From Pyrinomonadaceae bacterium (lineage in GTDB: Bacteria; Acidobacteriota; Blastocatellia; Pyrinomonadales; Pyrinomonadaceae), in NCBI GenBank assembly GCA_036009285.1, contig DASYMB010000235.1, positions 1-29,575 on the forward strand: a stretch of DNA of 29,575 nucleotides, read 5' to 3'. The position numbers and the translations under genes were made by a program. This document shows, in pieces, positions 5,968 to 18,809 of the stretch. Position 1 is the first letter of the stretch; every line of letters starts with the position of its first letter. Under the pieces are notes generated by a model, which saw nothing but the letters and a program-made list of their open reading frames with translations, ran no database searches and was not told the DNA's origin.

Positions 5968-6004
5968 GCGGTGCATCTCCTGATGTGCCGCTTTCGTATT
6001 ATTT
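5968..6004 (+). terminator. Putative intrinsic terminator
   Basis: GCGGTGCATC-TCCT-GATGTGCCGC stem (with G:U pairs) followed by TTTCGTATTATTT, about 30 nt after the stop codon. Confidence 0.5.
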
Positions 6005-6110
6005 GGCCGCGGATTTACGCGGATCACTCGAATCTGAAAGAACCTTGCTGAGCGTGTACACTTGTTTTCTGATCCGATCCGCGTTTTTCCGCGCAAATCC
6101 GCGGCCAAAA
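6001..6110. repeat. REP-like inverted doublet, family B (ATCCGCGTAAATCCGCGGCCAAA type)
   Basis: Arm TTTGGCCGCGGATTTACGCGGATC at 6002-6025 and an inverted arm ending AAATCCGCGGCCAAAA at 6110. Related copies occur at 9548-9566, 9653-9675 and 20669-20693. Confidence 0.75.
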
Positions 6111-6118
6111 TATCTTTC

Positions 6119-6148
6119 GTAACCTTTTCGTCTCTCCGCAGTTTATAT
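6119..6148 (+). promoter_or_regulatory. Candidate ECF-type (autoregulatory) promoter
   Basis: GTAACC...GTTT with AAC-N17-GT spacing, the usual ECF -35/-10 architecture, about 30 nt upstream of the ECF sigma gene. Confidence 0.4.
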
Positions 6149-6178
6149 AACTAGCAGACGTTCGAGTGAGGACTAGTC

Positions 6179-6730
6179 TTGAAGGTTCCGGAGAACCAGC
6201 ACCAGGAACGAGCATTGATTGAAGCGGCGCAGAAAGATCCGGGCCGTTTTGCCGAGCTGTATGAACTCAACTTCGAGCGCGTTTACGCCTACATAGCGCG
6301 GCGAGTGCGCGAACGTTCGGCGACGGAAGAGCTGACGTCCCACGTTTTTCATCAAGCACTCGCGAACCTCGGCAAGTTCAAGTGGCGCGGCGCGCCTTTC
6401 GCTTCGTGGCTTTTTCGCATAGCCCGGAACTCGATAGCCGATCACGCTCAGCGCTTACAACGAGAATCGCTGCCGGAGTCTTCCCATCGCGCCGATCCTG
6501 TCGCGACTCCTGAGCCCGACCTCGAGCAGATCGAAAGGGTCGCGCGAGTTTACCAGCTCATGGACCACCTGCCCTGGGACCAGCGTTACGTGATTCGTTT
6601 GCGTTTCGCCGAAGAGAAAAGCATTCGCGAGATTGCTCAGCAGTTGAGCCGGAGCGAAGGCGCAATAAAACAGTTGCAGTTTCGCGCGTTGCAAAACCTG
6701 CGCGCGCGTATGAGTGAAGAAAATGTCTGA
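6179..6730 (+). CDS. ECF-family (sigma-70 group 4) RNA polymerase sigma factor
   Basis: Region 2 (F.ELYE..FERVYAY; FASWLFRIARN...DH) and region 4 (LPWDQRYVIRLRF.EEKSIREIAQQLSRSEGAIKQLQFRAL). TTG start with a GAGG RBS. Confidence 0.93.
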   Translation: MKVPENQHQERALIEAAQKDPGRFAELYELNFERVYAYIARRVRERSATEELTSHVFHQALANLGKFKWRGAPFASWLFRIARNSIADHAQRLQRESLPESSHRADPVATPEPDLEQIERVARVYQLMDHLPWDQRYVIRLRFAEEKSIREIAQQLSRSEGAIKQLQFRALQNLRARMSEENV

Positions 6731-9680: not shown

Positions 9681-11066
9681 TTATTCCACCTCATAACCAG
9701 CATCGATCCAGGCTCCTGTGCCGCCGGTAACATTCAGAAGATTGGCGAAACCGTGCTGCTCGAGAATGCTGGTGGCTGCACTCGAGCGATAACCCCCGGC
9801 GCAGATCACTGCGGTCGGTATCGTTGGATTAAGCCCGAGGTTGGAAATGTTTTTCTGCAAACTGAGTAGCGGCGCCGGCACGGCATGAGGCACGTGTCCG
9901 CTCTGGTATTCGGGAGGCCGACGAACGTCCAAAATTTGTAACGGAGTTTCTTCTGCAATGAGCTGGTTCAATTCAGCAACCGTGATTTGCGGGATGGTAG
10001 CGAGTTCCAGACCCCACTCACGCCAAACTTCGACACCGCCATCGAGGTAACCCTTCACACTTTCGCATCCCACTCGGGCCAGACGGACCACAGCTTCATG
10101 CACTTTCGCTTCCGAATCGGTGACGATCACAATTGGCGTTTTCATCGGGATCAGTATTCCAGCCCAAATGGCAAACTGGCCCGCGAGACCAATGTTAAGA
10201 GAGCCGGGTAAATGTCCACCGCCAAAGTCTGCGGCTGAACGCACGTCGAGAATCAGGTAACCGTTAGCCGCAAGGTATTCCACCTCGTGCGGCGCCAGCG
10301 GCGCAGGAGATTGAACTTCAACCAATGCGGGCGCGCCGGTTCGATTTATTTCCGCGTCTTCGGGAAAGTAGGCGGGCGACTCGGGCAAGTCGGCGGTCAT
10401 CATTCGCACAAACTCATCTTTCGTCATCGGCTTGAGTGCATAGTTAGATAGCCGTTGCTCGCCAATAGTCGAAGATGTTTCCGTCGACAAGTTGCGTCCA
10501 CACATTGAGCCGGCGCCGTGGGCCGGATACACCTCGACGTCGTTCGCAAGTTTCAGGAGTTTGCCGTGAAGCGTGTCATACATCATGGCGGCCATCATCG
10601 GCGGCGTGTAACCCTTGCCACCCGCGAGATCGGGACGGCCCACATCGCCAACGAAGAGCGTGTCGCCGGTCAAAACTTTCTGCGGTCGATCGGAAACCTC
10701 GGAATCAATCACCAGTACGGAAATGCTTTCCGGTGTATGGCCCGGTGTTTCCATGATACCCAGGATGACTTTGCCGAGCTTGATTTCATCGCCATCGCAC
10801 ACAGCCGCGTGCGGAAATGTGGCCCCGGCCTTTGCGCCAATAACAATTTCAGCGCCGGCGCGCGCGGCGAGTTCCCGATGACCACTGACGAAATCGGCGT
10901 GCAGATGCGTCTCGATCACGTATTTGATTTTCAGCCCCAGTGCTTCGGCTTCGCTCAGATAGTGGTCCACGTCGCGCTGCGGATCAATCACCGCCGCCTC
11001 GCCATCAGAACCAATCAGGTAAGAAGCATGCGCCAAACAGCCGAGATAAAATTGCTTGAAGTACAT
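9681..11066 (-). CDS. MBL-fold persulfide dioxygenase-like hydrolase fused to two rhodanese domains (CstB/Blh-like)
   Basis: ETHLHADF, TPGHTPES, LTGDTLFVGDVGRPDL and PAHGAGSMCG. The first rhodanese domain lacks the catalytic Cys; the second has ICAGGYRS. Start chosen at MYFKQFYLGCLAHASY. Confidence 0.92.
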   Translation of the reverse strand: MYFKQFYLGCLAHASYLIGSDGEAAVIDPQRDVDHYLSEAEALGLKIKYVIETHLHADFVSGHRELAARAGAEIVIGAKAGATFPHAAVCDGDEIKLGKVILGIMETPGHTPESISVLVIDSEVSDRPQKVLTGDTLFVGDVGRPDLAGGKGYTPPMMAAMMYDTLHGKLLKLANDVEVYPAHGAGSMCGRNLSTETSSTIGEQRLSNYALKPMTKDEFVRMMTADLPESPAYFPEDAEINRTGAPALVEVQSPAPLAPHEVEYLAANGYLILDVRSAADFGGGHLPGSLNIGLAGQFAIWAGILIPMKTPIVIVTDSEAKVHEAVVRLARVGCESVKGYLDGGVEVWREWGLELATIPQITVAELNQLIAEETPLQILDVRRPPEYQSGHVPHAVPAPLLSLQKNISNLGLNPTIPTAVICAGGYRSSAATSILEQHGFANLLNVTGGTGAWIDAGYEVE

Positions 11067-11219
11067 AACAATAAGCGGCCTGCTGCAGCGCACTTAAGTA
11101 CGCAGTTTCGGTATCATCTTTGAGGGAGCAAAAAAAGTCATAGAGTTACTATTCTAACTTTAGAACAGCTTATGCAAACAAATGAAGGCTCGCAAGGGTA
11201 GTGCCCTAGTTTAGTTTTT

Positions 11220-11917: not shown

Positions 11918-14900
11918 CTAAACATGCTTCAACTCGGACCGCTCTGGCAAGCGATAAAACTCCCGCGCCGGCTTCAATGGGCGCAGCATCCAGTAGGGGC
12001 GGCGAGTGCCGTCTGGTGAATATTGATCTGCAGGTCGCGTCATTGCCAGCCACTTGCGGTAAACCTCGCGCGACTTCTCAGTATCCACAAATACATCGCC
12101 GGTGTTATCGCCGGGTTCGGCGACACGCACGCGCACCGCCTGATGCCAGCAGTGCATTCCCGAGATTGGATCGGGATGGACTGGGAAAGTCATATTCTGA
12201 TGAACGCCCACGTCGCTCCACCAAATGCGCAGCGTATCAGGGTCGCTTGACTCGTAGGGCTCGGCGCCTTTCTCACGTTTGAGTCCCCACTCGGTTCCAT
12301 CGTGATCGAGTTTCACCGTCGCCATCAACTGGCGTTGTCCCTGTTCACTCAACTTCCAGCGGCCCATGTGATGCGAGCAGGCAACGATGCCGGGACGAAT
12401 GCCTTCCGTCACCCATGCGCGCACCACGTAGTAACCAATCTCGGTTTCCACGCGCAACAGATCGCCGGTGCGCACTCCGAGTTTCGCCGCATGATTTGTG
12501 TGAATCCAAAGTGGATTCGTATGCGCGATTTCATCGAGCCATTTGGCGTTAGCGCTGCGCGTATGAATTTGCACCGGCAAACGAAAAGTCGAGATCAGGA
12601 TCGTTTGGCCCTCTTCGAGGTTGTCGGGATGAACGTGGCTCTTGATGTAAGTGGGAATCGCAAACTCATGCCAGCCCCACTCGGACAACGTGCGCGAATA
12701 GAATTCCAGACGGCCGCTCGGCGTGGGAAACCCGCGCTTGATTTCGTTTCCGACTCTAACACCTACGAAGCGCCGGCCATCTTCCTTGCCGTCGCCATCG
12801 GGACTCGGCACCGGAACGACGTTGGGCGATGCTGGTTTCGGCGCCCGCGTGTAGACGCGGCCACGTTCGTCCTCGCGAATGTCTTCGATCTCTTCCGGGC
12901 CAACGGGTTCTTCATATATCGCGCCAACTTTTTGTTTCACCTCGAAAGCGCCGTAGCGACGCATGAATTCCAGCGGCGTCAAACCTTCCGCCGCCGCTTT
13001 CTCCGGCAATCCAGGAACGGAGTTGTCGAAAATCCATTCGTAGTATTCATCCACACCGAGCCGCGTGCCCGGATTCTTTTTTGATTCGACGTACTGGCGT
13101 ATGCCGAGTGAGCCGTCCGGATCGATGCGCCAGGTCAGTTCCAACCAAAACTCATTCTCTTCCCAAACCTCGCCGGGATTCACTTTCCGGGTATCGTCAA
13201 TCGTTTCCCCTTCGCGCTGCCGATCCGCTTTCTTAACCGGCTGACGAAATCCCAACCACTGCGCGTCGTGCGTTTCGTATGAATGAATGTCATGGCGTTC
13301 CGAGCCATGGCCCATCGGCAAAACGTAGTCGGCGAAATAGGAGGTCTCGTTCCACGTCGGTGTCAGCGCCACGTAACAACCGACCAGGTCCGGATCAGTT
13401 AACATCTCGATCCAGGAGAAGCCGTCAGGATTAGTCCAGACCGGGTTGTAGACGCGCGTGAAATAAACATCGAGCTTGGCGCGTCCGTCCTTTAATAGAT
13501 GCGGCAGCAGGAACGACATCTCGTGCATCGCCAGCGGATACTCGCGCGGCCACTGTGTTTCGTTCCACATCCGCGGATGTGGCGGCGTGTAGATTGGCTT
13601 AGGCACAAACTTGTTCCAGGCATTCGGAAACACGCCGCCTTCCGTGGCGATCGCGCCGAGCAGCGCATTCAACATGAAGACCGCGCGCGCAACCGCCCAG
13701 CCGCCGCTAACTCCCGACGTCACGCTGCGCCAGTTGTGACTGGAGAAGCGCGTGCCCGCCGTCGCAATCAACTTCGCAATCTCTTCAATAGTTCTGGCGT
13801 CAACGCCGGATTCACTCGCGGCGAAGTCGAAGGTGTATTGCTGATACGTTTCTTTGAGTGCCGCCTCGAAGGTTGCGAAATCGGTTTTTACTGGGACCGC
13901 GGGCGTATCGCCCGTTTCTTCGCGCCGTAGGTGCGGAATGTTTATGGCGGCATCATTTCCATTTGAATCTTTTCCGAGCGCAGCAAAACGCTCGGCATTC
14001 TGCTCCGCTCGAAAGGAGGGTTGTGGTAGTGAGTCAGGTTCCATAAACATTTCGCCGCTCTGCGGCTGTGCTTCTGATCTCTGACCGACCTCTGACCTCT
14101 GTTCTAAGTATTCTTCCCAGTTCCACCAACGTCGCACAAACTCGCGGTTGTAGAGATCGTTTTGAATCAGATAATTCGCAATCGCCAACAACATCGCGCC
14201 CTCTGAACCGGGATAGGGCGCGACCCAGTAGTCGGCATGCGTGGCCGTGTGCGAAAGCCGCGTGTCGAAGACGATTAACTTGGCGCCGTTGGCTTTGCCG
14301 TCAATGATGCGCTGCGCGTGCGGGTTGAAATAATGGCCCGATTCCAGATGCGCGCTGATGAGCAGGATAACTTTGGCGTTCGCATGGTCGGGGCTGGGCC
14401 GATCAAGTCCCATCCATAGTTGATAACCTTCGCGGCTGCCGGAGGAACAGATGTTGGTGTGCGAGTTGTGACCATCAATTCCCCAGGCGGCGAGTATGCG
14501 TTCGGTGAAACCATCTTCGCCCGGCCGGCCGACGTGATACATGATCTCGTTGCGACGCTCCTCGACGATCGCTTTGCGAATGCGCGAGGCGATATCGTCA
14601 AGCGCTGCGTCCCAGCTAACGCGTTCCCATTTACCCTGGCCGCGTTTGCCGCTGCGCTTGAGTGGGTAAAGAATGCGATCCGGATCGTGAATCTGGTTGA
14701 GTGTTGCCGGACCTTTGGCGCAGTTGCGTCCGCGCGATCCCGGATGCTCGGGATTGCCTTCAAACTTCTGGATCTCGCCGGTGATCTTGTCGATGTAGGC
14801 GAGCAGCCCACACGCTGACTCGCAGTTGAAGCAGGTCGTGGGAACTAATGAATAGTGACGCTCCTTGCGCCGCGGCCACGCTTGCGAATCAAGCTCGGTC

Positions 14901-15034
14901 CAGTTGTCCCAACGCTCCTTCGGCGGATACGCCGCGAGATGGCTGCGCGAAGGGCCGGGATAAAACGTCTCGCCACGCGCTTCTGTTTCTTCCCGCGCAG
15001 CACCAATCAGTTGGTTTGATTCGTCAGGGTTCAT
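11918..15034 (-). CDS. Molybdopterin (bis-MGD) oxidoreductase catalytic subunit, DMSO reductase family, Psr/Phs/Ttr-like; no Tat signal
   Basis: FS0 motif C68-x2-C71-x3-C75...C105-A-K-G, then DPDRILYPLKR.G.RG.GKWE.VSWD. Candidate Mo ligand C196 (HTNICSS). Also ADYVLP and a C-terminal Mo-binding domain (F.TPSG.LEF; LWIH...A.KLG...GD). AGGAGA RBS. Confidence 0.93.
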   Translation of the reverse strand: MNPDESNQLIGAAREETEARGETFYPGPSRSHLAAYPPKERWDNWTELDSQAWPRRKERHYSLVPTTCFNCESACGLLAYIDKITGEIQKFEGNPEHPGSRGRNCAKGPATLNQIHDPDRILYPLKRSGKRGQGKWERVSWDAALDDIASRIRKAIVEERRNEIMYHVGRPGEDGFTERILAAWGIDGHNSHTNICSSGSREGYQLWMGLDRPSPDHANAKVILLISAHLESGHYFNPHAQRIIDGKANGAKLIVFDTRLSHTATHADYWVAPYPGSEGAMLLAIANYLIQNDLYNREFVRRWWNWEEYLEQRSEVGQRSEAQPQSGEMFMEPDSLPQPSFRAEQNAERFAALGKDSNGNDAAINIPHLRREETGDTPAVPVKTDFATFEAALKETYQQYTFDFAASESGVDARTIEEIAKLIATAGTRFSSHNWRSVTSGVSGGWAVARAVFMLNALLGAIATEGGVFPNAWNKFVPKPIYTPPHPRMWNETQWPREYPLAMHEMSFLLPHLLKDGRAKLDVYFTRVYNPVWTNPDGFSWIEMLTDPDLVGCYVALTPTWNETSYFADYVLPMGHGSERHDIHSYETHDAQWLGFRQPVKKADRQREGETIDDTRKVNPGEVWEENEFWLELTWRIDPDGSLGIRQYVESKKNPGTRLGVDEYYEWIFDNSVPGLPEKAAAEGLTPLEFMRRYGAFEVKQKVGAIYEEPVGPEEIEDIREDERGRVYTRAPKPASPNVVPVPSPDGDGKEDGRRFVGVRVGNEIKRGFPTPSGRLEFYSRTLSEWGWHEFAIPTYIKSHVHPDNLEEGQTILISTFRLPVQIHTRSANAKWLDEIAHTNPLWIHTNHAAKLGVRTGDLLRVETEIGYYVVRAWVTEGIRPGIVACSHHMGRWKLSEQGQRQLMATVKLDHDGTEWGLKREKGAEPYESSDPDTLRIWWSDVGVHQNMTFPVHPDPISGMHCWHQAVRVRVAEPGDNTGDVFVDTEKSREVYRKWLAMTRPADQYSPDGTRRPYWMLRPLKPAREFYRLPERSELKHV
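13880..14104 (-). repeat. Stack of REP-like palindromes and heptamer filler, translated in frame inside the molybdoenzyme
   Basis: CTGGGACCGCGGGCGTATCGCCCG (13891-13914). Inverted arms GCCGTAGGTGCGGAATGTTTATGG (13924-13947) and CCATAAACATTTCGCCGCTCTGCGGC (14041-14066). Hairpin CCGAGCG/CGCTCGG (13974-13995). TCTGACC-type heptamers (14073-14101). Confidence 0.65.
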
Positions 15035-15266: not shown

Positions 15267-15605
15267 CTAGCTCGATCGCAACAACGTATTCAGCTTTTTC
15301 AACGCTTCATCCGTTACAGAAGCTGGAAGTCTACAAATCAATTTGGTGTCACGAGCTTTCCAGTCGAGATTCTTGACTTGATCTGACAAGATTGCTCCCG
15401 TCACCTTCAAACCGTGAGGGATGATTACCTCAAATGGGTAGCCTTTGATCTGATTTGTAATCGGGCAAAGAACAACGAGGCCGACTTTGCGATTGTAGGC
15501 GACAGGCGACAACACCACTGCCGGTCGCCTGCCCGCCTGTTCGTGTCCGGCTTGTGGATCAAGCGTAACCCATACGGCATCGCCTCGATCGGGAGCATAC
15601 GCCAT
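15267..15605 (-). CDS. mazF: MazF/PemK endoribonuclease toxin
   Basis: P.RGD.VWV.LDPQAGHEQAGRRPAVVLSP..YN.K.GL...CPIT.Q.KGYPFEV; ILSDQVKNLDW.AR. TAATG overlap with mazE. Confidence 0.95.
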   Translation of the reverse strand: MAYAPDRGDAVWVTLDPQAGHEQAGRRPAVVLSPVAYNRKVGLVVLCPITNQIKGYPFEVIIPHGLKVTGAILSDQVKNLDWKARDTKLICRLPASVTDEALKKLNTLLRSS

Positions 15606-15847
15606 TACCAAACCTCTTTTCCAAGCGAAGCCCCGAAATCGACTTCCGAGTGAAGATTCTTTTTGGTTACTCGAGCCAGCAAATCCTCTAAGGAGTAATT
15701 TTGTTCTTTCGTCGGTTCCACGATCATTCTGCCATTGTCCAGCGATAAATCAACCACTGTGCCTTGCACTATGCTTGAGTGCGTCGCAAAAGACTTGGGA
15801 ATTCGCAACGCCAAACTATTTCCCCATTTTTGAATTGTAGCTTTCAT
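15605..15847 (-). CDS. mazE: MazE/AbrB-family antitoxin
   Basis: IQKWGNSLALRIPK...YSLEDLLA.VT..NLH.EVDFG...GKEVW. GAGGAGGA RBS. Confidence 0.95.
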   Translation of the reverse strand: MKATIQKWGNSLALRIPKSFATHSSIVQGTVVDLSLDNGRMIVEPTKEQNYSLEDLLARVTKKNLHSEVDFGASLGKEVW

Positions 15848-15923: not shown

Positions 15924-17522
15924 TCACGCCAGCGGCACCGATTGTCCGGCCTGCACGTAAGCATTCTCGTAAAGCATCATTCCAACTAAGGCCAGCGGCA
16001 CGCCAACGACGCCCAGGGATATGCTGACGTAACCAAGAATCGCGAGCCACGGCAACAGTCCGCCGAGAAACGACAGTGCAACACCGATCCAGAAGTCTCC
16101 CTTGTAACGACCACGTACCATTTCCCAAACAGCAAGACGCGCGTGGGCCGTTGAGTGTGTAAGCGACACTTCACCCCAGATCATCAGCAAGTGGAGCAGG
16201 CTTGTTATCGCGAGCAACCAAATCGAAGCCGCCACAGGAGGAGCCGTGCCAATATGGGGGTCGAGAATGTCCCGAGCGTTCGGACCGACAGTCCATAAAG
16301 TAATGAACAGCAGCACAGCCGAGCCCAGCAGCAACGCCTGCACAAGCAGATGCGGAGGCAGCAGCGGGTTTTGCCACATGTCGCGCGCCTTTGCTTGCGC
16401 AAAAAGAAAAGCCGTATAGATCGCGGTCATGATCGACAACGGAATTCCCGCGAGCATCAACCAACTTTGCAGTGTTCTTGATCCCAGCCAACTGGCAAGG
16501 AAATGAAGCGCGAGGACAAGCGTGTAGCCGGCAATGATGAATGCGCCTTTCACCAGCCAACTGCGCCACTGCGGTCGCGTGAAGATCAGATAGAAGCGCT
16601 CCGGATGTTCGAGGTCCCAGATTAAGAGCCCGCCAGTGATCGCCAGAAAGACGCCGGAAACAAGCGGCGTGGCCCAGAGCCAAATAGAATTGTTAACACT
16701 TAAGAATCCAAACCAGACGAGCAATGCCACAACGAGATACACACCAGCGGCAATCCCCTTGGTCCAGGTATAAAGGCTGACCTTCCAGTCCCAGGGAATC
16801 GCGTGCGCGACGTCATAGGAAAGCAGCGCCGCTGCCGAGCTGTTGTTGTAGTTTGGATTCCCGGAAACGACTTGCGACGAACCTTCCTGCTGCTCGCTCC
16901 ACATGAAGAGTCCGCCGTCGGGTCGTCGTGCGGCGAGCGGATCGAGCGTCGACTGATGCGCGCCCTTGTAAAAAAGTTTCGGCAGCGTTTCCTTCTCGGG
17001 TCGCCTTACAGCGACCGCCTCGCGATTGACGATTTGCGAAACGTACGATTCGGTATCGTTCAAGTCGCCGATTAGAATTGCCTGCGTCGGACAGACGACC
17101 ACGCACGCGGGCTCGAGACCCACGTCGATGCGATGCGCGCAGAAGTTACATTTCTCGGCTGAATGATCTTCGGGATTAATGAAAATCGCATCGTAAGGGC
17201 AAGCGGCCATGCAGGCTTTGCAACCGATGCAGATCGACTTATCAAAATCGACTATGCCATCGTCGCGCTTAAACATCGCGGTGGTGGGGCAGGCGGTGAC
17301 GCATGGCGCATGAGCGCATTGGTTGCAACGCGTGACTTGATGTGCGCGGCGGGCCTGCGGAAAAATTCCTACATCAACATGCTTCACATAGGTGCGCGTC
17401 ACCGAGAGCGGCACCAGATTCTCCGACTTGCACGCGGTGGTACACGCATGACAACCAATGCAACGCGTTTGGTCGATGACCTTGGCCCACTGCACCGCGC
17501 GATTTTGTGGTTCTTCGAGCAT
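15924..17522 (-). CDS. Fusion of a 4x[4Fe-4S] DmsB/NrfC-type subunit and an NrfD/PsrC-type membrane anchor (about 8 TM)
   Basis: Cys clusters CIGCHACTTAC, CNQCAHAPCVTAC, CIGCKACMAAC and CNFC...PACVVVC. NrfD features W.W.VSLY..TKGIAAG, DLEHPERF..I..RPQW.SWL..GA and about 8 hydrophobic segments. Start chosen at MLEEPQ. Confidence 0.92.
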   Translation of the reverse strand: MLEEPQNRAVQWAKVIDQTRCIGCHACTTACKSENLVPLSVTRTYVKHVDVGIFPQARRAHQVTRCNQCAHAPCVTACPTTAMFKRDDGIVDFDKSICIGCKACMAACPYDAIFINPEDHSAEKCNFCAHRIDVGLEPACVVVCPTQAILIGDLNDTESYVSQIVNREAVAVRRPEKETLPKLFYKGAHQSTLDPLAARRPDGGLFMWSEQQEGSSQVVSGNPNYNNSSAAALLSYDVAHAIPWDWKVSLYTWTKGIAAGVYLVVALLVWFGFLSVNNSIWLWATPLVSGVFLAITGGLLIWDLEHPERFYLIFTRPQWRSWLVKGAFIIAGYTLVLALHFLASWLGSRTLQSWLMLAGIPLSIMTAIYTAFLFAQAKARDMWQNPLLPPHLLVQALLLGSAVLLFITLWTVGPNARDILDPHIGTAPPVAASIWLLAITSLLHLLMIWGEVSLTHSTAHARLAVWEMVRGRYKGDFWIGVALSFLGGLLPWLAILGYVSISLGVVGVPLALVGMMLYENAYVQAGQSVPLA

Positions 17523-17721
17523 GCAAGCTCCGGTTCCAGGATTTTGCGGAGAGCGAACTATATCATGCAACTAAGAAAAGAAAACGTGCGCATTTAGTTG
17601 GAAACTAGCAGCCAGACAAGTCTGCGACACGAGTGCAGCATTGACAAAAGCACACAGGCATAAGAAATTAGCCTCGGATTATTTGTGGTTAGTTATTATG
17701 GTTTCATCAGGAGGTTTATCG

Positions 17722-18198
17722 ATGCGTCTTACTATTTCCTTTTTTGCCCTTACGGTGTTTGCCCTCGGCGTGTTGACCGCTTGCAACTCCGCCGAGTGGA
17801 GGAATGCGCGAACTGCTTCCGGGGTCACGGCTCCACAAGCCGCTACACCAACCGCCGATGGTGTGCGACGCGTTACCGTTACCGAGCTGAAAGATTTGTT
17901 GGCAAAGGATGAAGCCATAGTTATCGACGTGCGCAACGAGGCTGCTTATAACAGCGGCCACATCAGGGGGGCGAAACTGATTCCGGAGGCTGAAGTCGTA
18001 AATCATATCGATGAGCTGCCGAAGAATAAATTGATTGTCACCTATTGCTCTTGACCAAACGAACATACGTCCGCCCGTGCGGTGGCCGATCTGAAAACAA
18101 AGGGTGTCTCAAACGCCGGCGCGCTACTTGGTGGTTTCGCTGCCTGGCAAAATGCAGGTCTCCCGGTCGATGCTAAAGCCGCGAGTCCGGCTCCCTGA
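17722..18198 (+). CDS. Rhodanese-domain lipoprotein, predicted selenoprotein (C109-S-U111) by UGA read-through
   Basis: AGGAGG RBS and lipobox LTA-C. Rhodanese motifs IDVRN...Y..GHI.GA and LIVTYCS-[TGA 18052-18054]-PNEHTSARAV..L...G......LLGGFAAWQNAGLPV, with the next stop at 18196-18198. Confidence 0.85.
18055..18087 (+). promoter_or_regulatory. Candidate bacterial SECIS hairpin
   Basis: CCGCC-CGTGC-GGTGG stem-loop at 18071-18085, starting 16 nt after the UGA, with G at loop position 2. Confidence 0.55.
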
Positions 18199-18212
18199 TC
18201 AATTAACCCGAG

Positions 18213-18809
18213 ATGCACTGTTCCAACTGCGGATCCTACATCGCGCCCGGAGTGCGCTTTTGTTCCGGGTGTGGATCACCCGCCGACGATCCTGAAGCCA
18301 CGCGAATTGTTCGTGCCCAGCGCGGTATTCCAGTTCCCGAGAACTACGACCGCGCCGCGGACGATGATCTGGAGCAGGTGATTTTCACCGTGCGTCCAAC
18401 TTTGATCTTCATCAAGGTCGGTTATGCTTTGGCGATAGTGGGAGCGATTTCGCTTGTTATCCTCCTCGCGATGATCCAGATGCCGGTCTATATTTCGCTG
18501 CCGTTGGCCCTGTCGTTGCTTCTGATTCCGGCCTATTACCACCTCAAGCGAAACATGGTGCGGTACACTTTGACCGACTCAAAAATTGAGATCGATACCG
18601 GACTAATCGCCCGAACCACGCGCAACATTCCCCTCGCCAAGATTCAGGACGTGACCGTTTCCGCCAGCATTCCGCAACGGCTCCTCGGCTTTGGCGATTT
18701 GTTGATAGACAACGCGAGCGAGTTGGGCGGCACGACGATCCTTCGCAATATCACCCATCCCCGCCGCCACGCCGACCTTCTTTTGCGCGAACTCCGACGC
18801 CGGCATTAA
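18213..18809 (+). CDS. Zinc-ribbon plus bacterial PH-domain (YdbS/bPH_2-like) membrane protein
   Basis: CSNCG...FCSGCG, two TM segments, and Y.LTD..IEI.TGLI.R.TRNIPL.KIQDVTV...IPQRLLGFGDL.ID. Confidence 0.85.
   Translation: MHCSNCGSYIAPGVRFCSGCGSPADDPEATRIVRAQRGIPVPENYDRAADDDLEQVIFTVRPTLIFIKVGYALAIVGAISLVILLAMIQMPVYISLPLALSLLLIPAYYHLKRNMVRYTLTDSKIEIDTGLIARTTRNIPLAKIQDVTVSASIPQRLLGFGDLLIDNASELGGTTILRNITHPRRHADLLLRELRRRH

Follow-up and report, generated by a model that had tools for sequence, protein, structure and literature searches.

A probable selenocysteine-containing rhodanese lipoprotein encoded across an in-frame UGA in Pyrinomonadaceae

Positions 17722-18198 of the window (the whole stretch of 29,575 nucleotides of Pyrinomonadaceae DNA that was analysed) very probably form one conserved, unannotated gene for a 158-residue selenoprotein in which UGA is read as selenocysteine (Sec). 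As predicted from the sequence, this protein would carry a lipoprotein signal peptide with a lipidated C21, followed by a flexible tether and by a single rhodanese domain with the active site C109-S110-U111. SelA, SelB, SelD and the tRNA-Sec of the host would decode UGA 18052-54 as Sec, and this decoding would be directed by a minimal bacterial SECIS, a G+C-rich hairpin of 5 bp with an N-G-U-K-C loop located 16 nt after the UGA. The coordinates of these features and of the neighbouring genes are given in Table 1.

The open reading frame (17722-18051) closes at ...LIVTYCS, with TGA 18052-54 as its stop. Past this codon, the frame continues for 47 further codons, until TGA 18196-98, and contains the LLGGFAAWQNAGLP stretch. 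The original prediction had placed the stop inside the active-site loop of a rhodanese and had proposed that reading through it supplies the missing C-terminal half of the fold, and both points were confirmed. The read-through product matched the Pfam Rhodanese profile with 62.2 bits over positions 1-102 of 102 and the 110-residue product with 45.4 bits over positions 1-69 only, the whole profile being covered only when the TGA is read through. The tail 3' of this TGA, taken on its own, had no Pfam match. At the other end of the gene, the homologues begin at the same MRL as the product of ATG 17722.

Table 1. Positions of the Sec-rhodanese gene, of its predicted elements and of neighbouring genes in the window
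Feature	Position	Strand	Basis and remarks
Molybdopterin oxidoreductase catalytic subunit	11918..15034	-	Pfam Molybdop_Fe4S4, Molybdopterin, Molydop_binding
4Fe-4S/NrfD fusion (Psr/Ttr-type B-C subunits)	15924..17570	-	Pfam Fer4_11 + NrfD; divergent
Shine-Dalgarno AGGAGG	17709..17714	+	read from the sequence; 7 nt 5' of ATG 17722
Full CDS of the predicted selenoprotein	17722..18198	+	158 residues; U111 = TGA 18052-54; terminal stop TGA 18196-98
Predicted lipoprotein signal peptide, lipobox L-T-A-C	17722..17784	+	C21 (17782-84) = predicted lipidated Cys; pattern only
Ala/Pro/Thr-rich tether	17785..17874	+	about residues 22-46; pLDDT below 50, as given for residues 23-40; variable between orthologues in length and in sequence
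Rhodanese homology domain (residues 52-145)	17875..18156	+	PF00581, 62.2 bits vs cut-off 22.2
Predicted active site C109-S110-U111 (TGC TCT TGA)	18046..18054	+	C, S and TGA invariant in 20 orthologues
Zone of suppressed synonymous change (codons -1 to +11), read as the SECIS extent	18049..18087	+	codon entropy, pS
Putative SECIS core hairpin	18071..18085	+	stem 18071-75 with 18081-85; loop CGUGC 18076-80 (G18077, U18078)
Zinc-ribbon/bPH_2 membrane protein	18213..18809	+	Pfam; 14 nt downstream

We searched 36 congeneric genomes in all six frames and recovered an orthologue with an in-frame TGA in 32 of them (31 intact and one divided between two contigs); the four that lacked an orthologue were 67-78% complete. 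No orthologue with a codon other than TGA at the Sec site was found among these 36 genomes. In the 20 orthologous loci that were fetched, whose proteins are 46-76% identical, TGA occupied the identical codon in all cases, within the motif TYCSU[PHQ]xE[HQ]TSA. Relatives compared at codon 111, as the original prediction had proposed, thus carried TGA with conserved sequence beyond it. We also searched a collection of 5.8 billion proteins and kept the best 120 clusters; about 100 of them had 107-117 residues and matched exactly 70% of the query, which means that they ended at the TGA. The suspicion that standard gene callers truncate this protein was therefore well founded.

We compared selection on the two sides of the TGA with pairwise Nei-Gojobori proportions across the 20 orthologues. 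The upstream 64 codons had a pN of 0.24 and a pS of 0.75 (ratio 0.32), and codons +12 to +41 after the TGA a pN of 0.23 and a pS of 0.71 (ratio 0.32). The equal ratios indicate that selection on the protein is alike on both sides and that the downstream part is translated. These data bear on the reading of the TGA as a nonsense mutation private to this genome, an error of sequencing or the mark of a pseudogene whose downstream frame is a decaying remnant. Gene callers do stop at TGA 18052-54 and the source assembly is fragmented (3.27 Mb in 454 contigs, about 77% complete), but TGA recurs at this codon in 32 of 36 congeneric genomes and about 100 metagenomic clusters, the downstream pN/pS equals the upstream value, and the full fold needs the downstream part. 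An assembly artefact is unlikely to recur in more than 30 independent assemblies. This reading is refuted by the conservation of the TGA and is almost certainly wrong.

It is also highly improbable that termination at the UGA dominates, with a functional 110-residue lipoprotein and a downstream conservation due to RNA or to a separate small ORF. The truncated ORF still reaches 45 bits on Pfam Rhodanese, and Sec insertion in bacteria competes with release factor 2. However, the 110-residue product ends within the active-site loop and misses two helices and one strand of the AF2 model, the downstream part is under purifying selection at the amino-acid level with free synonymous change beyond codon +12, and the downstream frame offers neither a start codon nor a ribosome-binding site for a separate ORF.

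The nucleotides that follow the UGA were nearly invariant across the 20 orthologues. In conserved degenerate codons, the synonymous codon entropy was 0.29 bits at positions +1 to +11 vs 1.32 bits elsewhere (Mann-Whitney p = 9e-6), and pS was 0.14 in codons +1 to +11 vs 0.71-0.75 outside. Codon -1 was counted in the suppressed zone because Ser110 is encoded by TCT in 20 of 20 orthologues. RNAalifold recovered a single helix from the 20 orthologues, pairing alignment columns 26-30 with 36-40, which correspond to window positions 18071-75 and 18081-85; all 100 of the 100 pairing cells were satisfied. The hairpin is thus the one described in the original prediction, which had it start 16 nt past the UGA with G as the second loop position. 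The changes observed in its stem were a compensatory CG-to-GC swap in one locus (L035, Ser TCC to AGC), two CG-to-UG and one GU-to-GC. The loop consensus was N-G-U-K-C, with G and U invariant in the orthologues. Taken by themselves, the orthologues offer little covariation, namely one double change.

We then enlarged the set by 14 paralogous C-x-U rhodaneses, taken from the genus as well as from other families of the class. Each of the 14 had this hairpin, equally far from the UGA and usually as GCGCC-CGUGC-GGCGY; with paralogues included, the loop G was invariant and the U was present in 25 of 26 sequences. The core pairing was kept in 129 of 130 cells of the larger set, and the outer pair was CG in 11 sequences and GC or GU in 14. 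The covariation score was 0.287 vs 0.184 +/- 0.025 in shuffles, none of the 500 shuffles reaching 0.287, and the controls with slid partners gave at most 0.125. In the Cys orthologue L040, the one Cys form whose DNA was compared here, the sequence at this site was different and the hairpin was lost. The fold of the hairpin in its 65-nt context was no more stable than that of shuffled sequences (z = +1.07), so that support for the hairpin comes from conservation and covariation and not from thermodynamics. An Rfam scan of positions 17600-18400 with E up to 10 returned no match; to our knowledge, Rfam holds no bacterial SECIS family. Bacterial SECIS elements are described as having in common a small apical loop that contains a guanosine and lies just 3' of the UGA (PMC1088965). 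The proposal that the hairpin is a SECIS has thus been strengthened, the element being conserved with covariation in both orthologues and paralogues.

One of the 20 orthologues (L027) comes from an unpublished genome (G031), which is also counted among the 36 congeneric genomes and in the NF041203 tally given below; a second unpublished genome (G061) enters that tally only. Without L027, the entropy contrast was 0.29 vs 1.30 bits (p = 6e-6) and the pairing was retained in 5 of 5 positions. No claim depends on G031 or G061.

Cys-type rhodaneses with a similar loop had been mentioned in the original prediction, and they were indeed recovered. A Cys orthologue (P0003), 69% identical and located on a 2.66-Mb contig with the gene order of the window, has TGT at the Sec codon (this is the locus L040 mentioned above). 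Cys was found at the Sec column in P0003, P0004, P0006, P0007, P0009, P0011, P0014 and P0047, the loop of full-length homologues besides P0003 being YCSCP or YCSCS. Five full-length homologues had Trp at this column, and in both of those with readable DNA the codon is TGA, rendered as Trp by the depositor's gene caller; these are consequently Sec forms as well. We considered the Trp variants as an argument against an essential Sec and rejected it, the two with readable DNA being TGA-coded. On two short contigs (L051:514-975 and L052:495-968), the JGI calls used genetic code 4 and yielded full-length 'YCSWP' proteins.

The machinery for Sec insertion is present in the source genome, all components scoring above their cut-offs: selA with 538.9 bits (cut-off 267.9), selB with 340.3 bits (cut-off 242), selD with 359.1 bits (cut-off 125) and a tRNA-Sec with 69.7 bits, above the curated cut-off, which ARAGORN reported as SeC with anticodon tca. 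The selD gene itself contains one in-frame TGA, so that selenophosphate synthetase is also a selenoprotein in this genome. In this gene (L008, G000:C405:128-1054), the TGA lies in an N-terminal ...CSGU-AAK motif and is followed by a long hairpin.

That the UGA is read through as an amino acid other than Sec, either by a near-cognate tRNA (Trp, Cys or Arg) or in a reassigned code, is very unlikely. The rendering of the same gene with TGA as W by JGI pipelines on short contigs would agree with it, but TGA is also the true stop of this gene (18196-98) and of its orthologues, the Sec machinery is complete and includes a selD with its own UGA, the homologues that lack the TGA have Cys, which is the signature of Sec/Cys pairs, and a conserved hairpin with a G-U loop lies at SECIS distance.

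With Sec as the preferred reading of codon 111, the protein can be described from end to end. Its leader consists of M-R, a hydrophobic stretch and L-T-A-C21, which fits the pattern [LVI][ASTVI][GAS]C. The lipobox that had been noticed at the N-terminus held up in the comparison, C21 being invariant in 17 homologues, and the orthologues whose N-terminus was recovered had a small-small-Cys box followed by N-S/A. From this leader we infer that the protein is anchored to the inner membrane on its outer side or resides in the periplasm. In the AF2 model, the rhodanese domain extends over about residues 47-150, with pLDDT of 90-98 over most of its length, and the best solved structures found with Foldseek were 3tp9 and 3nhv (E 2e-9, rmsd 1.6 A, 105 columns, 28-30% identity).

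The AF2 secondary structure comprised a strand at 104-108 (LIVTY), the loop 109-114 (C-S-U-P-N-E) and a helix at 115-126 starting from H115. The HMMER pairwise alignments were ambiguous as to whether C109 or U111 occupies the canonical position. An alignment on the x5-S-A spacing, which would put U111 at the canonical catalytic position, was not supported by the AF2 model, which has C109 right after the strand. In this model, the place of the canonical catalytic Cys would be that of C109, and U111 would lie in the cradle loop, two residues further on. The protein would carry or reduce sulfane sulfur (or selenium) by selenol/thiol chemistry: the more nucleophilic Sec111 would take the sulfane sulfur (or selenium), and C109 would share the persulfide or resolve it via a Se-S bond.

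The cluster search indicates that this Sec-rhodanese family is systematically mis-annotated, as stubs of about 110 residues and as proteins with a spurious Trp (genetic code 4). With a corrected annotation, most genomes of this abundant genus of soil Acidobacteria would gain an exported selenoprotein. The genus and the class hold several more C-x-U rhodanese paralogues, which are soluble, carry a signal peptide or are fused to membrane proteins, all with the same minimal SECIS. In two cases (L050, G023:C180, and L064, G045:C61), a C-x-U Sec-rhodanese with the minimal SECIS forms the C-terminus of a large polytopic membrane protein; the open frames have 557 and about 270 residues and the motifs are IAYCAU and LFCTU, respectively. 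TGA-bearing frames of 556-621 residues similar to these two occur in many genomes of the genus. The P0007 contig carries a Cys-form rhodanese lipoprotein (158 aa, 6001-6477) followed in tandem by a rhodanese stub of 113 aa, P0113 (6505-6846). This stub looks like a truncated Sec form, which would place Cys and Sec versions side by side in one genome.

The closest neighbour on the 5' side is a divergent gene for a 4Fe-4S/NrfD fusion, whose best NCBIfam matches (TtrB, DsrO and NrfC) were all below cut-off. It was the divergent neighbour in 18 of the 20 congeneric loci (18 of the 19 that carry it at all), as well as in L040 and other Cys-form loci. The molybdopterin oxidoreductase subunit located beyond it had PhsA as its best NCBIfam match (197 bits vs a cut-off of 694), with further sub-threshold matches to TtrA and to other members of the DMSO-reductase family. 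A MazEF pair lies between the two genes. The pair found at this junction differs among loci: MazEF in the window (15267-15847), DUF433/DUF5615-PIN in L040 (3349-3908) and ParE/antitoxin on the P0014 contig. These differing toxin-antitoxin pairs suggest repeated insertion at one operon junction. On the 3' side, the zinc-ribbon/bPH_2 gene is probably co-transcribed with the Sec-rhodanese; it was found downstream in 12 of 20 loci and in L040, and is followed in the window by a DUF6599 gene. Further away, 6-8 kb from the Sec-rhodanese, a fusion of an MBL-fold domain with a rhodanese (persulfide dioxygenase-rhodanese type, like 3tp9 and 5ve3) is encoded at 9681-11093 on the minus strand, and in at least eight congeneric genomes the coordinates show a rhodanese-matching frame of about 460-495 aa equally far from the Sec-rhodanese.

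No twin-arginine (Tat) leader was present at the start of the molybdenum subunit (14975-15034, minus strand), where an upstream stop limits any extension, or at the N-terminus of the FeS-NrfD fusion (17523-17570, minus strand). Judged from these sequences, the Tat-less molybdopterin subunit and the FeS-NrfD protein suggest a Psr/Phs-like complex that faces the cytoplasm. We found no FeS-NrfD or molybdoenzyme gene within +/-10 kb of the C-x-U rhodaneses at seven loci from other families of the class. Four of the loci from other families (L065, L066, L068 and L069) encode lipoprotein C-x-U Sec-rhodaneses with the motif IIAYCTUPxEHTSARAA, and a gene for a PD40/WD40-like beta-propeller adjoins the C-x-U rhodanese in four of the five loci scanned in other families of the class, a conserved context unlike that of the window. 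The linkage between the rhodanese and FeS-NrfD may reflect shared ancestry within one genus.

This neighbourhood recalls that of Sud, which in Wolinella succinogenes transfers polysulfide sulfur in the periplasm and supplies the polysulfide reductase PsrABC. In both systems, an exported single-domain rhodanese stands beside a Psr/Phs-type molybdoenzyme with an NrfD-type anchor. The differences are that Sud is a soluble Cys protein that works with a Tat-exported, periplasmic PsrA, whereas the window protein is a Sec protein predicted to be lipid-anchored. Since neither the catalytic molybdenum subunit nor the FeS domain carries a Tat leader, their active sites and that of the rhodanese would lie on opposite sides of the membrane, unlike in the Sud system. 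A Sud-like role is weakly indicated at best, given that no Tat leader is present and that the synteny does not extend beyond the genus. More broadly, the Sec-rhodanese could be the extracytoplasmic arm of an undescribed sulfur/selenium module together with the Tat-less molybdoenzyme, FeS-NrfD and the MBL-rhodanese, in which it would capture sulfane sulfur or selenium species as a selenopersulfide or cycle via a C109-U111 selenenylsulfide; we regard this as a speculative and rather unlikely proposal. If it were true, soil Acidobacteriota (Pyrinomonadaceae) would have a Sec-based functional analogue of Sud. We know of no C-x-U rhodanese that has been characterised so far, and a protein with a clear predicted compartment and a conserved redox-enzyme neighbour would be a reasonable entry point to this type.

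Among structurally known rhodaneses, the MBL-rhodanese 3tp9 of Alicyclobacillus, 3nhv (BH2092), GlpE and PspE share with the window protein the fold and the strand-loop-helix arrangement of the active site; they have no Sec and no lipoprotein leader, and their loop lacks a second chalcogen residue. A rhodanese fold with a UGA-encoded Sec in or at the active-site loop is common to the window protein and to other Sec-rhodaneses, namely the two-domain COG2897 type from the Sargasso Sea (PMC1088965), the UxxS/UxxG forms and TsoB with its UxxxxU motif (NF045694). There, Sec either stands in place of the canonical Cys or belongs to another motif, whereas the window protein keeps the Cys and adds Sec at +2; its score against the TsoB model was 31.7 bits, with a cut-off of 805.

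The closest known system is the CxU rhodanese. Rhodanese selenoproteins have been catalogued in five forms, of which form 3 (COG0607 form 2) is CxU, represented by NCBIfam NF041203 rhodanese_LYCAU and attributed to Zhang & Gladyshev 2005 as a predicted selenoprotein (PMC13188914, PMC9312934). The Sec-rhodanese of the window is not a new type of selenoprotein, CxU rhodaneses being already in these catalogues, and will be no surprise to a selenoprotein specialist. We found no literature linking Sec-rhodaneses to Acidobacteria, and the terms 'lipoprotein' and 'periplasm' do not occur in the 2026 review.

NF041203 was the best NCBIfam match of the window protein (E 2e-25), with which it shares a single rhodanese domain, Sec at the loop Cys +2 (C-x-U) and a SECIS directly 3' of the UGA. 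The score, 88.8 bits with C in place of U (82 in the genome search), is below the curated cut-off of 115; the whole orthologue group scored 61-89 bits, and a single protein, of the Cys type, passed the cut-off in 41 genomes of the genus. Membership in the NF041203 equivalog was therefore rejected on the curated cut-off. The window protein differs from NF041203 by its leader and tether of 45 residues, the 126-position profile matching only from residue 41, by its motif (TYCSU vs LYCAU) and, within the genus, by its conserved divergent FeS-NrfD neighbour. The criterion used in the reviews (domain plus Sec motif) places the protein in the form 3 subfamily and the curated model excludes it. On these sequence comparisons, the window protein is best described as representing a putative subfamily of lipoproteins that is sister to the CxU rhodanese selenoproteins of the catalogues, a type that was already known.
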